From Sedimentisphaerales bacterium (GTDB taxonomy: Bacteria; Planctomycetota; Phycisphaerae; Sedimentisphaerales; Anaerobacaceae), in the NCBI GenBank assembly GCA_035342095.1, contig DAOQWL010000007.1:25015-89014 (forward strand): a DNA stretch of 64,000 nucleotides, read 5' to 3'. Position 1 is the stretch's first letter, and every line of letters starts with the position of its first letter. The position numbers and the translations under genes were made by a program. The notes beneath the pieces were generated by a model. That model worked only from the letters and a program-made list of their open reading frames with translations. It did no database searches and was not told the DNA's origin. Positions 4,999-51,370 of the stretch are shown here, piece by piece.

Positions 4999-5124
4999 GA
5001 TTTACGATTTACTATTTACGATTTGTGGTTTAGTATCGTCGCCATGTCGGTCTGTGCGCCGCGGGAGTGGATACGCAGCGGCGGGAGACCGAATCGAAAA
5101 TAGTAATTCGTAAATCGCAAATTC
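4999..5124. repeat. Inverted pair of A+T-rich heptad arrays flanking a GC-rich core
   Basis: 4999-5031 GATTTACGATTTACTATTTACGATTTGTGG is roughly the reverse complement of 5091-5124 GAATCGAAAATAGTAATTCGTAAATCGCAAATTC. About 23 of 26 positions pair by hand alignment. Confidence 0.6.
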
Positions 5125-5135
5125 CGAGGGTTCGG

Positions 5136-6071
5136 ATGGACAAGTTCTTGGTGACGGGCGGAGCCGGATTCATCGGCTCGAATCTCTGCAAGCGTCTGGT
5201 GACGGAAGGATGTTTCGTCCGCGTCGTGGACAATCTCCTGACCGGCAAGCGAAGCAACCTGGCCGCGATCATGGACAAGATCGAGTTCGTCGAGGCGGAC
5301 ATGGGCGACCCCGACGTGGCCCGCTCAGTCATGCAGGGCATCGACGTGGTCCTGCACGAGGGGGCGCTGCCCTCGGTCCCGCGGAGCGTGGACGATCCCG
5401 CCAGCAGCCACCGGCACTGCGTGGACGCGACGTTCACACTGCTGCTGGCCGCGCGTGACGCCCGCGTGAAGCGGTTCGTCTACGCCGCCAGTTCCTCTGC
5501 CTACGGCGACACGCCCACCTTGCCCAAGGTCGAGACGATCCGCCCGGACCCGCTGAGTCCCTACGCGGTCGGCAAGCTCGTCGGCGAGCACTATTGCTCG
5601 GTGTTCGCGAAGGTCTACGGCCTGGAGACGATCGCGCTGCGATACTTCAACGTGTTCGGGCCGCAGCAGGACCCCGCCAGCCAGTACGCCGCGGCCATTC
5701 CCGCCTTCGTTACCGCCATCCTGCGGGACCAGCCCCCGACCATCTACGGCGACGGCGAACAGAGCCGCGATTTCACGTATATCGACAACGTCGTACATGC
5801 CAACTTGCTGGCCGCCCGCGCGAAGAAGACCGCCGGCCAGGTCGTCAACGTCGCCTGCGGCGAGGCCGTCACGGTCAACGCGATCATCGCCATGATCAAC
5901 CGCCTGCTCGGCAAGAGCGTCAAGCCGAACTACGTCCCCGCCCGCGTGGGCGACGTGAAGCACTCGCTCGCGGACATCACCGCCGCGAGAGAGCTGATCG
6001 GCTTCGAGCCCGTCGTCCCGTTCCGCGAGGGCCTCGAAAAGTCCATCGATTGGTACCGCCGCAACCTCTGA
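5136..6071 (+). CDS. NAD-dependent sugar-nucleotide epimerase/dehydratase (SDR family)
   Basis: Rossmann motif VTGGAGFIGSN at the N-terminus and catalytic SPYAVGK (YxxxK). ATG at 5136 was chosen over the ORF-track start at 5067. Confidence 0.85.
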   Translation: MDKFLVTGGAGFIGSNLCKRLVTEGCFVRVVDNLLTGKRSNLAAIMDKIEFVEADMGDPDVARSVMQGIDVVLHEGALPSVPRSVDDPASSHRHCVDATFTLLLAARDARVKRFVYAASSSAYGDTPTLPKVETIRPDPLSPYAVGKLVGEHYCSVFAKVYGLETIALRYFNVFGPQQDPASQYAAAIPAFVTAILRDQPPTIYGDGEQSRDFTYIDNVVHANLLAARAKKTAGQVVNVACGEAVTVNAIIAMINRLLGKSVKPNYVPARVGDVKHSLADITAARELIGFEPVVPFREGLEKSIDWYRRNL

Positions 6072-6137
6072 AGCTGTTCGGTGATTCTATCAATCAGGCG
6101 GGCTTGTCTGTCTCAGGTCAGCGGACGGTCTTTTCCG

Positions 6138-6166
6138 TTGACCTACTGCTCCAGAGGACATATGCT
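6138..6166 (+). promoter_or_regulatory. Putative sigma70-like promoter for the ATPase/Toprim-like pair
   Basis: TTGACC (6138-6143), 17-nt spacer, TATGCT (6161-6166), about 65 nt upstream of the ATG at 6231. Confidence 0.3.
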
Positions 6167-6230
6167 ACTCTTGGACGGTGCGCTGCTTGGCAGTTCGCCG
6201 TGGGATTCTACTGTGAGCTGGGGTCGAGCT

Positions 6231-7283
6231 ATGTTCAAACGAGTGACGGTGAGAAACTTCCGCGCCATTACCGACCTGAGCGTTGATGGCCTAAGCAGGG
6301 TGAATCTGTTTGTCGGGCACAATGCGTGTGGAAAGACGTCGCTGCTGGAAAGCATATTCTTTCTCATCGGAGCAACAAACCCAAGACTCCCTGTCAGCGT
6401 GAATACTTTCCGAGGGTTCCCCTATGTGAGTTTGGCCCTCTGGTCGACGTACTTCCACAATATGGATGTCACTGTGCCGGTCGAGATTCGCGGCAACGAG
6501 ACGGATAGTGGGGACGAACAGCGACTTGTCATACGCCCTCGCTACGAGCATCCTAGATCAGACACAGAGGTTTCGTCACCAGCGTTGTCCGGCGGGTGGG
6601 TGCGTACGGTCTCTACAGCCGTCGGGAACATAAATGGGCTCGAACTCGAGTACTCAACTTCATCTGACCTCTCGCCGGTTGTGTCGAGGGTGTTTGTGAA
6701 AGGTGGGGAGGTTATGGAAGAAGGGGCGCGGGTGCGCCTGCCCACAGGCGCATTTGTGTTGCCCATGGAAAAAGATCTCCGGGATCGATTCAGCGAGATT
6801 CAGCGGAAGAAACAGGTTGCGGACGTAATCTCACTGTTGAGGGAAATCGAACCAGCAATTGCAGATCTGAGATTGCTGGACCCTCCAGGAGTGCTGCACG
6901 GCGACGTGGGTGCTCCTGAGCTCGTGCCGGTGAACCTGATGGGCGGCGGGATGATGAAGCTACTCACCACGGGCCTTATGATGCTCACGTTGCAGGACGG
7001 ATATGTGCTCATAGATGAGATTGAGAACGGACTGGATTACTCATCTCAGCGGAAGCTGTGGGACGCGATCTTCAGTTGGTCGCAGAAGTTGAACATCCAG
7101 GTATTTGCAAGCACGCACTCTGTGGAATGCATCAGAGCTTTCAGTGATCGCGCAGAAGGCGAGTTGTTCGAAGTGGATGCCAAGCTGTTTCGCATCGAAC
7201 GCAACGAGAGCAAGTTCAGGGCCGTCGAGTATACGCGGGAGTTACTCGCCGAGTCTCTGGACAGCAATTGGGAGGTGCGATAG
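6231..7283 (+). CDS. ABC/AAA_21-type ATPase (OLD/AriA/AbiLi-like class)
   Basis: Starts MFKRVTVRNFRAI. Walker A GHNACGKTS, signature-like MGGGMMKLL, Walker B YVLIDEIENGLD and H-loop ASTHS. Sampled G+C is about 48% (6301-6360). Confidence 0.8.
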   Translation: MFKRVTVRNFRAITDLSVDGLSRVNLFVGHNACGKTSLLESIFFLIGATNPRLPVSVNTFRGFPYVSLALWSTYFHNMDVTVPVEIRGNETDSGDEQRLVIRPRYEHPRSDTEVSSPALSGGWVRTVSTAVGNINGLELEYSTSSDLSPVVSRVFVKGGEVMEEGARVRLPTGAFVLPMEKDLRDRFSEIQRKKQVADVISLLREIEPAIADLRLLDPPGVLHGDVGAPELVPVNLMGGGMMKLLTTGLMMLTLQDGYVLIDEIENGLDYSSQRKLWDAIFSWSQKLNIQVFASTHSVECIRAFSDRAEGELFEVDAKLFRIERNESKFRAVEYTRELLAESLDSNWEVR

Positions 7284-7915
7284 TGGCAGGCGAAGGACCG
7301 AGGACCATCACGAAGAGGAACGTGCTGGCTGTCGAGGGGGAGGACGACAGGAATTTCTTTGAAGCCCTGCTACGCCACATGGGCATTGTCGACGTGCAGA
7401 TCGAGCCGGTTGGCGGCAAGGATCAGTTCAAGAACAAGCTTCCCGCATTGCCGAAAACGCCCGGTTTCTTCGACGCGAATGGGGTTTCATTCGTCCGGCA
7501 TTTGGCCATTGTCCGAGACAAAGGTGATGACCACGCTTTCGAGAGCATCGCGAACATCGTGAAAGCAGCGGGTTTCACACCACCGCTTGCCAGTGGCCGG
7601 TTCTCAGATGGGGCTCCACGCGTGGGGATCTTCATCATGCCGGGCCAGGGTGTTTACGGGACGATGCTGGAGGACCTGTGCCTGGAGACGGTCAAGAACC
7701 ATCCGGCAATGGACTGTGTCGGGCCATTTGCTGAATGCATACGGGGTCTGACGCATCCGCCTCGCAGCCCATCCAAGGCGAAGTGCCAAGCCTTTCTTGC
7801 TGCCCAAGTAGAAATCGCCAATGCCGTAGGTGTGGGCGCGCTCAAGGGGTACTGGAACCTGAACTCACCGGCCTTGGATGGGTTGAAGGGATTCCTGAGC
7901 CAGATGAGATGTTGA
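7283..7915 (+). CDS. Small Toprim-like partner protein (DUF4276/DUF3226/DUF4435 class)
   Basis: GTG start overlaps the ATPase stop (ATAGTG). Motifs NVLAVEGEDDRNFFEALL, AIVRDKGDD and GIFIMPGQGVYGTMLEDLCLE resemble the acidic Toprim-type core of partners of AAA_21 ATPases. The family call is from memory of motifs. Confidence 0.55.
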   Translation: MAGEGPRTITKRNVLAVEGEDDRNFFEALLRHMGIVDVQIEPVGGKDQFKNKLPALPKTPGFFDANGVSFVRHLAIVRDKGDDHAFESIANIVKAAGFTPPLASGRFSDGAPRVGIFIMPGQGVYGTMLEDLCLETVKNHPAMDCVGPFAECIRGLTHPPRSPSKAKCQAFLAAQVEIANAVGVGALKGYWNLNSPALDGLKGFLSQMRC

Positions 7916-12665: not shown

Positions 12666-12874
12666 GCGGGCTGACCCCTGCAGTGTTCGTATTCAGGGCG
12701 TGTATTTGAAGGAACCGATACCCGTACTGAGGGAGGATCAGGCCTTGACGGGCCGAACATGCCTGCCAGCAGGAAGTTTGGACGCAAGCAACGATCTGCC
12801 CACTTGAAGTAATGGGTTCCCTTCAATCGCCCCTTTTACGGCACAGGTGGAGGTGAGCTGGCATATAAGAAAAG
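12666..12874 (+). ncRNA. Candidate structured sRNA, 6S (SsrS)-like long irregular hairpin; alternatively a glgP leader
   Basis: Nested long-range pairings: 12666-12675/12853-12862, 12696-12700/12827-12831 and 12706-12716/12814-12825. Bounded by a promoter and an intrinsic terminator. No convincing CDS. Confidence 0.4.
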
Positions 12875-49184: not shown

Positions 49185-49218
49185 ACAACACCTCCATCAA
49201 TTGGAGGAAGCAACAGAC

Positions 49219-49734
49219 TCATGTACGCGCTCGCGATCCTTCAAGAATCGCACGCATGTCATCCGAACACAGGAAGTCAACGTTTACTCCAGCTTCTTGG
49301 AGGGCGTCCCGCATGAGCCACCATTTGGCGTCGACTGCCTGGAAGATGGGGGGATGATCCAGGTGCGCGACTGACACGGCCACGAACTTGCGGTCCTTCC
49401 CGTGAAAGCTGGCGAGCCCTGACGAGATCGGGAACTCCTTGAAGTCGGAGGACTCTGCATCCGTTGGCGTGATGGACACCATTTCGCACCGTTCTGAATT
49501 GCGGTAGTTCGTCAAGACCCACTTCAGGAATGCATCCCCGCTTCCTGGCTGACCTGATGATCTGAGATTGGCCATGTACTCTTTGAGAATCAACCATCTG
49601 TCGTCGATCACCAATGTCCCGGCCTCAGTCAACTCTCGAAGGCGAGCAGCACATGTCTGGACACATTTCGCGGACGCCTGGGCTGACTTCCCGTTTGCGA
49701 CGACGGGTACATTCGTGTCGACGACAGCCCTCAC
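49219..49734 (-). CDS. PIN-like domain protein (predicted nuclease)
   Basis: GTG start within a GTGA overlap with the ATPase stop. Starts VRAVVDTNVPVV, then KEY, KDRKFVAVSVAH and QAVDAKWW, spaced as PIN acidic residues. A+T-richer than the flanks. Confidence 0.6.
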   Translation of the reverse strand: MRAVVDTNVPVVANGKSAQASAKCVQTCAARLRELTEAGTLVIDDRWLILKEYMANLRSSGQPGSGDAFLKWVLTNYRNSERCEMVSITPTDAESSDFKEFPISSGLASFHGKDRKFVAVSVAHLDHPPIFQAVDAKWWLMRDALQEAGVNVDFLCSDDMRAILEGSRART

Positions 49735-51110
49735 ACAGCACTCCTCATCTGTCGTTGCATGGCAGCCTCCGTCTTCGCTGTCAATTCGCCCATTTCGTCG
49801 CCGAAGAAGTCCTTTGGCCAATTCCGGATGTCACCGAACATGTCAACATCCAACTTCTCGGCCACGGACGAGGAATTCTCCATACGACAGAAGTAGAGTG
49901 CTGTCTTCTCAACACTGATACTCTCCTCAGCTATCCGTCGCTGCAGCCGGCGAAGAAAATGCTCGCTGTGGCTTTCGAGGATTACCTGCACGTTTCGGTT
50001 CTTCACGACATCGATGAAGACGTCAGCCAGCCACGCCTGCGCCGATGGATGAAGATGCAACTCGGGCTGTTCGAGAAGCAGAATCGATCCCTCTGGGACA
50101 TAATAACACATTACCAGCACCGGAAGCACCTGGGACAGACCAAAGCCGACATCCGTGATCACAACATCAGGTGACCGACGCGTTTTTCTCACCTTGACCT
50201 CGTATTCCTTGCGGTTCTCGGCAATCTGTTTGATGGAGAACGAGTCAATGATGCCCATTTGAGCCAGCCAGAATGCCAGCCTTTCCTCAAGTGTCCTGCG
50301 TCTCATCTTGGGGCCGCGCGAAATATATGGACCCCTGCGCCCGGCCGCCAGCAGTGCGGCAATGGCCAGTTCCCCTTTTCTGCCCACGTCCGGGGGAGCC
50401 TCCCCAGCCCACGTATAGATCCGCCTGGGATATTCTCGCAGAGGCCCAAGGTAGACGGTTCGACCGAACAAGCCCTCAAGCTCCAGAACGATATCCGCGA
50501 GAAAACCGACGTTCTGAAAGTAACCGCGTACCTCGTCAGGGAAGCCATAGAACTTCACAGGAGCAGGGAGAGGCCATGGCCGCCCTCGTTGCCGTTTGGC
50601 TTCGTAGGACCTGGCAACGAGTTCATAGCCTTTCTTCTTCGAATCCCCTGCCTCCCTCTCCATACCGAAGGTCTTATCGGCAAAGGAATACGAAAACCTC
50701 GCAACGCTCGGAGCTCCGGCGCTCCCACTGACCCCCAATTCAAATTGCAGCGACGGGATCTCGAAAAGCATTGCATCCCTCTCTTCAGGGTTCTTGACAC
50801 GCAAAGGGGCTAGAAGATCCCATGATAGAGACAACGATAACGAGTTCTCTGTGTCGTGGCCGTGAATCAAGTCCGCGAACGTACCCAGATCCACGATTGA
50901 CAGGTCATCTCCAGTATGCAAAACACGACGTCTGTCAGCCGACTCGACGGTCTGTTTGAGCATGAGGAGCAACTGGAGGATGCTCGTCTTGCCTGAACTA
51001 TTCGTCCCAAACAGACCCGTGAGCGGAGCCAGTCGTAACCTGCCCGTGTCCTTCCACGATTTGAAATTCTTAACCTGCAATTCCCTGATCACGGTATCTC
51101 TCCTGCTCAT
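49731..51110 (-). CDS. DUF3696-type ABC/OLD-like ATPase (AAA_15/AAA_21 class)
   Basis: LQVKNFKSW, Walker A GTNSSGKTS, LLLEQPELHLHP, ESHSEHF and the C-terminal DIRNWPKDFFGDEM. An alternative GTG start at 51092 has AGGAGA 6 nt upstream. Confidence 0.8.
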   Translation of the reverse strand: MSRRDTVIRELQVKNFKSWKDTGRLRLAPLTGLFGTNSSGKTSILQLLLMLKQTVESADRRRVLHTGDDLSIVDLGTFADLIHGHDTENSLSLSLSWDLLAPLRVKNPEERDAMLFEIPSLQFELGVSGSAGAPSVARFSYSFADKTFGMEREAGDSKKKGYELVARSYEAKRQRGRPWPLPAPVKFYGFPDEVRGYFQNVGFLADIVLELEGLFGRTVYLGPLREYPRRIYTWAGEAPPDVGRKGELAIAALLAAGRRGPYISRGPKMRRRTLEERLAFWLAQMGIIDSFSIKQIAENRKEYEVKVRKTRRSPDVVITDVGFGLSQVLPVLVMCYYVPEGSILLLEQPELHLHPSAQAWLADVFIDVVKNRNVQVILESHSEHFLRRLQRRIAEESISVEKTALYFCRMENSSSVAEKLDVDMFGDIRNWPKDFFGDEMGELTAKTEAAMQRQMRSAV

Positions 51111-51370
51111 CTACGAGCAAGACACGGAACGCCGCACAACTGCGGAGGACCGCGTGCAATAGGTTATGCCACTTGAATCGATCCCGGCATCTACGCACAC
51201 GGTAACGCGATATACCAGGCTTGTCAATTCACTACCAGAATCGAATCCTGCGGACGGAGAGACTGTCTATGCCCAAAAAGACGAGGTGGCAAGTTCGCTC
51301 GTCTATCTGACGGGGAAGCTGGGTTATTGAGTTCTTTCGGCCCGTACGAATTCGCCTACCACCGGGGTTG

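Follow-up and report, generated by a model that had tools for sequence, protein, structure and literature searches.

A Planctomycetota gene pair encoding a DUF3696-type ABC ATPase and a predicted PIN nuclease very probably represents the known phage-defence system HEC-03 on the chromosome

Two adjacent genes on the minus strand of the window (the whole 64,000-nt stretch of Planctomycetota DNA analysed here) encode an ABC ATPase and a small PIN-like protein (Table 1). The open reading frames and the junction sequence bear out the initial annotation of this DNA, which had described products of 459 and 171 aa joined by a GTGA overlap, and the motifs that it quoted are all present in the translations: GTNSSGKTS (residues 35-43), LLLEQPELHLHP (344-355), ESHSEHF (379-385) and DIRNWPKDFFGDEM (427-440) in the ATPase, and VRAVVDTNVPVV, KEY, KDRKFVAVSVAH and QAVDAKWW in the small protein. 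An ATGA or GTGA gene junction is also found at five other loci carrying the pair. The longest frame for the small protein (49219..49821, minus strand) would yield 200 aa from a TTG; since homologues measure 165-175 aa and the HEC-03 profile model introduced below begins at V30 of this 200-aa frame, the GTG start, which has a GAGGAG 6 nt 5' of it, is the right one. For the ATPase, codon 7 is where homologues start (an M7 in 90% or more of the A2 set), and an AGGAGAG lies 6 nt 5' of the codon-7 GTG, so that, judging from the sequence, the true start is probably the GTG at 51092, giving a product of 453 aa.

Table 1. Features of the gene pair and its immediate flanks (window coordinates).
Feature	Position	Strand	Details
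ATPase ORF	49731-51110	minus	459 aa from ATG; 453 aa if GTG 51092 used
Small-protein ORF, GTG-start form	49219-49734	minus	171 aa
GTGA stop/start overlap, translational coupling	49731-49734	minus	sequence ...GCT GTG TGA GGG...
Walker A, G35-T-N-S-S-G-K41-T42	50985..51008	minus	G35, N37, G40, K41 invariant in 78 diverse homologues
Walker B, I-L-L-L-E347-Q348-P-E350	50061..50084	minus	E347, Q348, P349, E350 invariant, 78/78
H-loop, E379-S-H381-S	49965..49976	minus	invariant, 78/78
DUF3696 C-terminal tail, residues 398-443, including N430-W-P and F435-F-G-D	49782..49919	minus	Pfam PF12476, 3e-08
PIN-like protein, predicted nuclease effector	49219..49734	minus	acidic residues D6, E52, D114, D135
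Acidic codons	D6 49717-49719; E52 49579-49581; D114 49393-49395; D135 49330-49332	minus	
Promoter-like TTGACA-N17-TACCGT, putative	51199..51227	minus	comparative motif; carried with the cassette
Decayed 3' end of a beta-lactamase-family gene	51241..51351	minus	in relatives, a complete gene lies upstream of the pair
Short hairpin with T-rich tail, 3' of the PIN stop codon; possible terminator	49191..49207	minus	only such site in the region

The low G+C content already remarked upon at first reading is real, at 0.552 in the pair compared with 0.634 in the window, and GC3 is 0.64-0.66 against 0.79-0.88 in the neighbouring genes; the pair is thus A+T-rich relative to its flanks only. Its solitary position between a GH16 gene and a PQQ-propeller gene, with no integrase, transposase or tRNA, was likewise described correctly. 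The surrounding genes encode GH16, TatA, an aminotransferase, a PQQ_2 propeller and a GFO/IDH/MocA-like protein, and no tRNA was found anywhere in the window. Except for one generic TPR match, there are no defence matches within ~10 kb of the pair, which is not part of a defence island. Elsewhere in the window, at 6081-7915, lies a second ABC-ATPase pair, resembling AbiL/PDC-M38. The region upstream of the ATPase holds only a gene remnant and the PQQ propeller gene. The remnant matches the last 37 aa of a 704-aa ORF at locus L015 (46% at the amino acid and 76% at the nucleotide level, over 63 nt), and L001, L003 and L092-L108 retain the corresponding beta-lactamase-family gene in full. A strict sigma-70 consensus scan reported no promoter upstream of the pair; the motif TTGAC[AGT]-N16-18-TAnnnT was found there in 9 of 79 distinct loci, mostly those of Planctomycetota relatives, compared with 0.6% of random windows. 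On the downstream side, the possible terminator belongs to a class of hairpin/T-tail sites that is no more frequent in the region than in shuffled sequence.

The assignment of the larger protein to the DUF3696-type ABC ATPases holds at the level of both profiles and structure. Pfam returned AAA_15 (4.8e-26), AAA_21 (1.4e-20) and, over residues 398-443, DUF3696 (3e-08), and an AlphaFold model (pLDDT 81, pTM 0.85) gave 225 PDB matches at E ≤ 1e-3 in Foldseek, the best of which (E ~1e-11) are the heads of Rad50, OLD, GajA, PtuA and SMC proteins. The modelled fold is of the ABC type, not AAA+. Besides Walker A, Walker B and the H-loop, a GxG-S-Q signature is conserved, and N430, W431 and P432 of the DUF3696 tail are invariant among the homologues. 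The Walker B segment aligns with "IIEEPE" in Thermus OLD and with "LIDEIE" in PtuA, with a Gln at the position of the usual catalytic Glu in all 78 homologues and also in the plasmid copies; PtuA entries carrying a Q at this position (9nnb, 9nnk) outscore the wild type. Given this Gln in place of the catalytic Glu, the protein probably acts as a switch that binds ATP and hydrolyses it slowly or not at all.

The small protein required a more indirect assignment. Its model (pLDDT 93.3) is a single domain with beta-alpha PIN topology, and Foldseek ranked PIN folds at the top (best E 0.05, TM 0.4-0.5) with no match at E ≤ 1e-3, so that the fold call rests on ranking, topology and profile-profile alignment. 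Pfam PIN_3 is weakly matched by 14 of 48 family members, spanning positions 1-104 of the 115 in the profile, and hhalign of the family profile against bona fide PIN_3 gave E values of 1.3e-4 to 2.4e-4. Other searches contributed little: the window protein itself has no PIN match in Pfam (GREB1_N, at E 0.15, was the sole match and is spurious) and nothing in NCBIfam, the family profile found chance matches only among PDB sequences, hhalign against single PIN sequences was uninformative, and in an exhaustive representative search the best 150 matches were all at E ≤ 1e-41, none bridging to annotated distant PIN families. One might therefore suppose, from the lack of a significant match to solved PIN structures, that the small protein is an inert adaptor or sensor and not a nuclease, with toxicity arising elsewhere, for example from ATP depletion or host-factor recruitment; the Menshen system indeed employs PIN-like domains as adaptors only, all of them catalytically dead and devoid of the D-E-D-D set (PMC12065111). 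However, D6, E52, D114 and D135 occupy the canonical PIN positions, stand in register with the catalytic residues of PIN_3 in the hhalign alignments, and are 99-100% conserved across 138 sequences that are 34-54% identical to the window protein, a degree of conservation not expected of an inert adaptor. We consider the adaptor reading very unlikely and, with moderate confidence, predict from sequence and model that the partner is a VapC-like PIN domain with its catalytic acidic residues, in keeping with the four acidic positions recognised in the initial annotation. Also conserved are a GQPG-GD-FLKW loop and four Cys residues.

Comparison with PADLOC models gave the pair a name. The ATPase matches PDLC04148 at E 1.4e-149 (497 bits; protein residues 8-457 on profile positions 2-455 of 458), and the sole PADLOC match of the small protein is PDLC04147, at E 4.6e-32 over profile positions 3-154 of 159. 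Both are models of HEC-03, with the letters swapped between sources: the ATPase is HEC-03A in the preprint and "HEC-03B" (PDLC04148) in PADLOC-DB v2, and the PIN protein is HEC-03B in the preprint and "HEC-03A" (PDLC04147) in the database. HEC-03, or Hma-embedded candidate 03, was described as an ABC ATPase with a VapC-like PIN protein; a representative lowered the plaquing of at least two coliphages in E. coli by orders of magnitude, required both genes for this activity, and was toxic on IPTG induction or over-expression (Payne et al., bioRxiv 10.1101/2024.01.29.577857). These near full-length matches overturn the earlier view that no named system combines a DUF3696 ATPase with a stand-alone PIN protein: by its sequence the combination is already catalogued, and the pair is an ordinary further copy. 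That a match of this kind would cost the pair its novelty and not its function had been foreseen. No Hma or other DNA-modification system surrounds the pair, and its neighbours have no PADLOC matches. As the same authors kept candidates that also occur outside hma loci (bioRxiv 10.1101/2024.01.29.577857), the absent Hma context is no argument against membership, and Hma embedding is the discovery context of HEC-03, not a defining feature.

The distribution of the pair points in the same direction. A check of synteny in other genomes, as initially proposed, found the ATPase directly upstream of the PIN gene and co-oriented with it in 80 of 80 genomes from about ten phyla, and the pairing recurs in 5/5 metagenome contexts. 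Together with the HEC-03 models, this synteny supports the original reading of a predicted defence module, and we regard it as highly probable that this Planctomycetota (Phycisphaerae-like) genome carries, in the form of the pair, the phage-defence system HEC-03 on its chromosome; the representative with demonstrated activity was assayed in E. coli only. Homologues matching the same two models are also carried on conjugative plasmids, beside AbiEii and Hok/Gef; a phage collection contained no homologue of the ATPase. An RNA ligase gene lies directly downstream of the pair in four other lineages; one instance of this three-gene arrangement is Aeromonas pWP9-W18-ESBL-04_1, 62255-64883.

Within Planctomycetota relatives the pair occupies a fixed site, which was assessable in 38 cases and is filled in six and empty in 32. 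It is thus an accessory cassette at one site of diverged relatives, and the term "island" used in the initial annotation stands as far as accessory status and deviant composition are concerned and fails as regards a fresh insertion. A recent insertion peculiar to the window genome was rejected since diverged relatives carry the pair at the same site, a core and vertically fixed pair was rejected on the empty sites, and a mobile-element origin was rejected after a search found neither repeats at the flanks, direct or inverted, nor target-site duplications, nor tRNA, integrase or transposase genes. Defence cassettes are not usually retained at one site across diverged relatives, a point against the HEC-03 reading. 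This persistence at a single chromosomal site could also be read as the mark of a toxin-antitoxin-like addiction module, in which a VapC-like PIN toxin would be neutralised by the ATPase and would serve self-maintenance or stress responses over phage defence; the resemblance of the PIN protein to VapC/PIN_3 toxins, the toxicity of HEC-03 on induction and the proximity of plasmid copies to Hok/Gef and AbiEii would all fit. Against this, anti-phage activity has been measured for HEC-03 and needs both genes, and the 32 empty sites among 38 indicate that the pair is readily lost. Toxin-antitoxin and abortive-infection roles can moreover coexist, and we judge the addiction module improbable as an alternative to HEC-03 defence.

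How such a defence might operate can be sketched by analogy with NsnB-NsnC of Menshen, PARIS and Septu. DUF3696 tails of ATPase dimers or oligomers would hold the PIN protein in an inactive state; an infection cue, sensed via variable inserts of the ATPase, would shift its nucleotide state; the PIN nuclease, freed or activated, would then cut RNA (tRNA, rRNA or mRNA), and RNA cutting would halt translation and phage growth. An RNA target fits with the linkage to an RNA ligase gene. One could further envisage, as a conjecture more apt to fail than to hold, that HEC-03 is a minimal, sensor-less relative of Menshen, in which a Gln-fixed, hydrolysis-impaired switch would cage an active PIN RNase with its DUF3696 tails, that the ligase-bearing lineages would reverse the RNA damage ("cut and repair"), and that the Planctomycetota cassette would be a long-lived presence/absence polymorphism kept by recombination between relatives and not by a mobile element.

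Genome annotations should give the two genes the name HEC-03 (ABC ATPase + PIN). That system is validated against phages, and the window contributes an example from Planctomycetota that lies in no defence island. The invariant Walker B Gln bears on the question raised by Payne et al. of whether ATP binding or hydrolysis is involved, the kinship of the ATPase with NsnB via the DUF3696 tail suggests how the PIN protein may be held, and the ligase linkage points to an RNA target; none of the three changes the verdict that the pair is already known.

Among other known systems, type II VapBC shares the small PIN protein with a D-E-D-D set in register with PIN_3, but the partner here is a ~450-aa ABC ATPase, and the window PIN protein has the GQPG-GD-FLKW loop and the four conserved Cys in addition; upstream of the PIN gene lies no small VapB-type antitoxin gene but the 453/459-aa ATPase. 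In Septu and retron I-A (PtuA-PtuB), an ABC ATPase oligomer binds the nuclease between its C-terminal domains, and PtuA structures rank with the best matches of the window ATPase, by fold as well as by sequence. The Septu effector, however, is an HNH DNase, for which Pfam and PADLOC found no PtuB counterpart in the pair, and PtuA has a canonical D-E in Walker B where HEC-03 natively has E-Q. PARIS likewise consists of an ABC ATPase (AriA) and a nuclease (AriB, Toprim), and its ATPase is reported to keep the nuclease sequestered until a trigger arrives, whereupon the effector cuts tRNA. The window ATPase shows a weak similarity to AriA models (1.8e-27, PADLOC) but differs from AriA in its DUF3696 tail and other inserts, and the effector is a PIN protein instead of Toprim/DUF4435; the small protein matches the HEC-03 model only, leaving no AriB partner.

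Menshen (NsnA-NsnB-NsnC; PMC12065111) shares more with the pair, NsnB being the next PADLOC match of the ATPase after HEC-03 (1e-61 over residues 8-437). Common to both are the DUF3696 helical tail with a GxG signature variant, an acidic-amide Walker B (EN in NsnB, EQ here) and a partner with a PIN-like fold, which in Menshen is the N-domain of NsnC. The NsnB tail is predicted to clamp this PIN-like domain (PMC12065111), a docking that by analogy probably applies to HEC-03 as well. These likenesses could point to a Menshen in reduced or degenerate form, NsnB and NsnC having lost the NsnA sensor and perhaps being inactive. Yet the match to the HEC-03 models is far stronger (1.4e-149 vs 1e-61), no NsnA gene (ParB-DUF262 + ParBDB) lies upstream of or adjacent to the ATPase in the window, and the ATPase-PIN pair itself recurs at all 80 genome loci; NsnC has a C-terminal toxin domain, whereas the partner here is a 171-aa single-domain PIN protein with D-E-D-D intact, unlike all Menshen inPIN domains; and the two-gene HEC-03 form is active in E. 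coli. A degenerate Menshen is therefore extremely unlikely, and the data suggest that HEC-03 ATPases form a clade apart from NsnB with a stable two-gene architecture. From HEC-03 as first described, the window copy differs in lying outside Hma, alone among housekeeping genes on a Planctomycetota chromosome, and it shares with that system the co-oriented AAA_15/AAA_21 + DUF3696 ABC ATPase and PIN protein of ~170 aa.

The statement in the initial annotation that no named system combines a DUF3696 ATPase with a stand-alone PIN protein is wrong, since this architecture already has a name. In PADLOC-DB v2.0.0, the defence-family model that fits the large protein best is PDLC04148 ("HEC-03B"), with 1.4e-149 across profile positions 2-455 of 458, and the small protein hits PDLC04147 ("HEC-03A") with 4.6e-32 across positions 3-154 of 159. 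The runner-up models for the ATPase are far weaker (Menshen NsnB, 1e-61; PDC-M55A, 1e-56; AriA, 1.8e-27). HEC-03 is one of the nine "Hma-embedded candidate" systems of Payne et al.; when expressed in E. coli, it makes at least two phages plaque orders of magnitude less efficiently, defence requires both genes, and induction is toxic (bioRxiv 10.1101/2024.01.29.577857). We found no later paper giving HEC-03 another name or a mechanism. The pair shows all the defining features of HEC-03 that can be tested and is thus an already known system, apparently an intact and unremarkable member on a Planctomycetota chromosome. The subunit letters are swapped between the two sources, the preprint using HEC-03A for the ATPase and HEC-03B for the PIN protein and PADLOC-DB the reverse, which could mislead annotation.

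Both overlapping minus-strand ORFs described initially were found, as were all the motifs quoted from them (see table). Their junction reads ...GCT GTG TGA GGG..., a four-base GTGA overlap, and GAGGAG lies six bases 5' of the GTG of the small protein, a start confirmed by homologue lengths of 165-175 aa. Homologues of the ATPase begin at codon 7 of the window ORF, where AGGAGAG precedes a GTG by 6 nt, and the true start is therefore likely at 51092, for a product of 453 aa.

Features of the HEC-03 pair, its surroundings and related loci
Feature	Position	Strand	Description
ATPase ORF	49731-51110	-	459 aa from ATG
Small-protein ORF	ends 49219	-	longest form from TTG 49821, 200 aa; form from GTG 49734, 171 aa
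E347-Q348 of ATPase	50067-50072	-	Gln at catalytic Walker B Glu position; 78/78 HEC-03 ATPases and plasmid copies
Promoter-like element	51199-51227		TTGACA-N17-TACCGT, upstream of ATPase gene
Beta-lactamase-family remnant	51241-51351	-	last 37 codons, degenerate; in spacer upstream of ATPase
Second pair, first gene	within 6081-7915	+	AAA_15/AAA_21 ABC ATPase; PADLOC AbiLi 6.9e-55 (whole model, from residue 51), PDC-M38A 3.5e-51
Second pair, second gene	within 6081-7915	+	215-aa DUF3226 protein; Pfam 4.1e-25, PADLOC PDC-M38B 1.4e-10
6S RNA	12672-12857	+	Rfam RF00013, 54.2 bits, full-length
RNA ligase gene, locus L170	10939-11631
RNA ligase gene, locus L171	8928-9629
RNA ligase gene, locus L083	6507-7181
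RNA ligase gene, locus L041	2620-3084

Pfam bore out the ATPase assignment of the large protein (AAA_15, 4.8e-26; AAA_21, 1.4e-20; DUF3696, 3e-08, residues 398-443) and gave no match for the small one. The AlphaFold model of the ATPase (alignment of 52 sequences; pLDDT 81.4, pTM 0.85) matched 225 PDB chains at E<=1e-3, with Rad50, Thermus OLD, Gabija GajA, retron/Septu PtuA and SMC heads on top at about 1e-11, confirming the ABC-type fold claimed for it. Little or no variation is seen among 78 diverse homologues in Walker A (G35, N37, G40, K41), Walker B, the signature variant G322-F-G324-x-S-Q327 and the H-loop E379-S-H-S. Walker B reads hhhh-E347-Q348-P-E350 throughout; the aligned stretch is "IIEEPE" in Thermus OLD and "LIDEIE" in PtuA. 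In ABC ATPases, replacement of the Walker B Glu by Gln is the classic change that blocks hydrolysis. The PtuA entries 9nnb and 9nnk, which carry Q at this position and are presumably engineered E-to-Q mutants, outscore wild-type PtuA against the HEC-03 profile.

The small protein had been read as PIN-like from four acidic positions, and this reading held with moderate strength. Its structure model (alignment of 48 sequences; pLDDT 93.3, pTM 0.89) has the order beta1-alpha-alpha-beta2-alpha-alpha-beta3-(insert)-alpha-beta4-alpha-beta5-alpha. Foldseek against the PDB returned nothing at E<=1e-3, though the top ranks are mostly PIN folds, namely 5yww (probability 0.95), AF1683 (1w8i), VapC4 (5h4g), HARP RNase P (7e8k), Nmd4 (8rd3) and 1y82/1ye5, with TM-scores of 0.4-0.5 across the list. 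Weak Pfam PIN_3 matches occur in 14 of 48 family members (best E 0.005), covering profile positions 1-104 of 115. We then built one profile from 138 diverse members of the family, which share 34-54% identity with the window protein, and another from 48 bona fide PIN_3/PIN proteins, starting from a neighbour gene in locus L041 that scores 6.9e-19 on PIN_3, and aligned the two by hhalign. The local alignment gave E 1.3e-4 (probability 54%) and a greedier one E 2.4e-4 over 136 columns, the latter placing D6, E52, D114 and D135, each conserved in 99-100% of the 138 sequences, opposite the conserved acidic PIN_3 residues D9, E47, D94 and D113. The same 138 homologues conserve the cysteines C24, C28, C83 and C156 (95%, 87%, 78% and 97%), a possible metal site or set of disulfides with no counterpart in canonical VapC PINs. 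In the family representative P0222 (479 aa), the PIN-like part spans residues 320-477, which may reflect a fusion to the C-terminal part of the ATPase or read-through from it.

The proposed coupling of the two genes is conserved well beyond the window. In five independent metagenome contexts, the gene directly upstream of the PIN gene encodes an AAA_15/AAA_21/DUF3696 ATPase of 448-457 aa and overlaps it by 1 or 4 bases. The arrangement recurs in all 80 of 80 loci examined in named genomes, which belong to Planctomycetota, Chloroflexota, Poribacteria, Cyanobacteria, Thiotrichaceae, Myxococcus, Latescibacterota, Armatimonadota, Gemmatimonadota and Acidobacteriota. At 50% identity, the family of the small protein falls into 1530 clusters (E<=1e-3). 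Full-length copies, 44-48% identical, reside on one Azotobacter, six Aeromonas and one Rhodococcus plasmid, the Aeromonas copy that we looked at adjoining AbiEii and Hok/Gef; none was found in the phage collection. In the Poribacteria loci L045, L055, L076, L081, L082 and L085, the ORF directly before the pair ends ...GYEINFNRYFYQYTPLRSLKEI... ~120 nt ahead of the ATPase start, and its C-terminus may be that of an N6-adenine DNA methylase. These copies would then sit in a modification system, like the original HEC-03 discovery context.

On the chromosome, the pair is flanked on one side by GH16, TatA, aminotransferase and NfeD/FloA genes and on the other by a PQQ_2 propeller, a GFO/IDH/MocA-like gene and a beta-helix protein, with no tRNA, no flanking repeats and, within ~10 kb, no defence-gene match except a generic TPR match. 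The nearest named relative, Phycisphaerales bacterium UBA2218 (L015), shares 80-81% DNA identity across ~7 kb. The pair adjoins the convergent GH16 gene in the window and in loci L003, L010, L011 and L015, with a beta-lactamase-family gene on its far side in the flanks looked at (L003, L015), and lies directly upstream of the aminotransferase in L001, L004, L012, L016 and L022. A fresh insertion is rejected, since identities to L003, L004 and L001 rank alike for the aminotransferase (82, 73 and 66%), the ATPase (72, 70 and 67%) and the PIN protein (73, 64 and 62%). Among 80 metagenome loci picked by the aminotransferase alone, the pair was present in 6 and absent in 32, with 42 too short to judge; three of the empty loci, L092, L093 and L098, whose aminotransferases are 83-89% identical, have just a few to ~40 bases between the two convergent stop codons. 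The pair is thus a ~2 kb accessory cassette of variable presence at one fixed site, where we found neither target duplication nor mobile-element gene. It seems to carry its own promoter-like element, similar elements occurring in 9 of 79 distinct upstream regions versus 0.6% of random windows. At the position of the beta-lactamase-family remnant, relatives have an intact gene (~700 aa); the window lineage lost most of it, and this loss put the PQQ propeller gene beside the cassette. In L015, the ATPase ORF (5117-6004) has just 295 aa, matches residues 198-459 of the window ATPase with 95% identity and directly adjoins the stop codon of a 704-aa gene upstream; it appears that the first 197 codons, including Walker A, were deleted or that the MAG contig is chimeric.

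The description of the pair as A+T-rich is true only relative to its surroundings (G+C 0.552 versus 0.634 in the window; GC3 0.64-0.66 versus 0.79-0.88 in neighbouring genes). Its GC3 is ~0.2 below that of neighbouring genes in all loci checked (window, L001, L003, L004, L006, L008), also where it shares site and identity ranking with housekeeping neighbours; the deviation persists without amelioration despite an apparently long stay at the site. A second overlapping pair of low GC3 (0.64/0.68 versus ~0.85 around it), 43 kb from HEC-03 between an epimerase and a PEGA-domain gene, is probably a candidate AbiL-like or PDC-M38 defence pair. The 6S RNA is the sole Rfam match within the window.

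The two genes form an operon, have intact motifs and are obligately paired. The ATPase is like NsnB of Menshen in its DUF3696 tail, GxG signature variant and acidic-amide Walker B (EN in NsnB, EQ in HEC-03), and for Menshen a clamp of two DUF3696 tails around the PIN-like N-domain of NsnC has been predicted (PMC12065111). Based on these three common features and this predicted clamp, we propose that the HEC-03 ATPase would probably hold its PIN partner via the tail. Given the Gln in its Walker B, it likely acts as a switch that binds ATP and turns it over slowly or not at all, unless E350 serves as catalytic base. Sensing of infection would then free or activate the PIN protein, leading to RNA cleavage.

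An RNA ligase gene (Pfam PF09414, ~1e-31 to 1e-33) lies directly 3' of the PIN gene in four lineages: an Azotobacter plasmid, Aeromonas plasmids, Myxococcus sp. and a Desulfosalsimonadaceae MAG. Two plasmid copies score 9e-31 and 2e-33, and those in L083 and L041 were detected via tblastn (45-54% identity). PADLOC lacks a model for the ligase, and the HEC-03 preprint (bioRxiv 10.1101/2024.01.29.577857) makes no mention of one. The linkage hints at an RNA target with possible repair, the PIN protein making cuts open to religation. HEC-03 researchers may find modest leads in the Gln native to Walker B in place of Glu, the relation to Menshen, the variant with a ligase gene and the polymorphism at a fixed site.

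Identity with Menshen is ruled out by the absence of NsnA and of a C-terminal toxin domain and by the active-type PIN, identity with PARIS or Septu by a different effector fold, and identity with VapBC by the absence of VapB. In its likely working, the pair resembles the ABC ATPase plus nuclease systems Menshen, PARIS and Septu.
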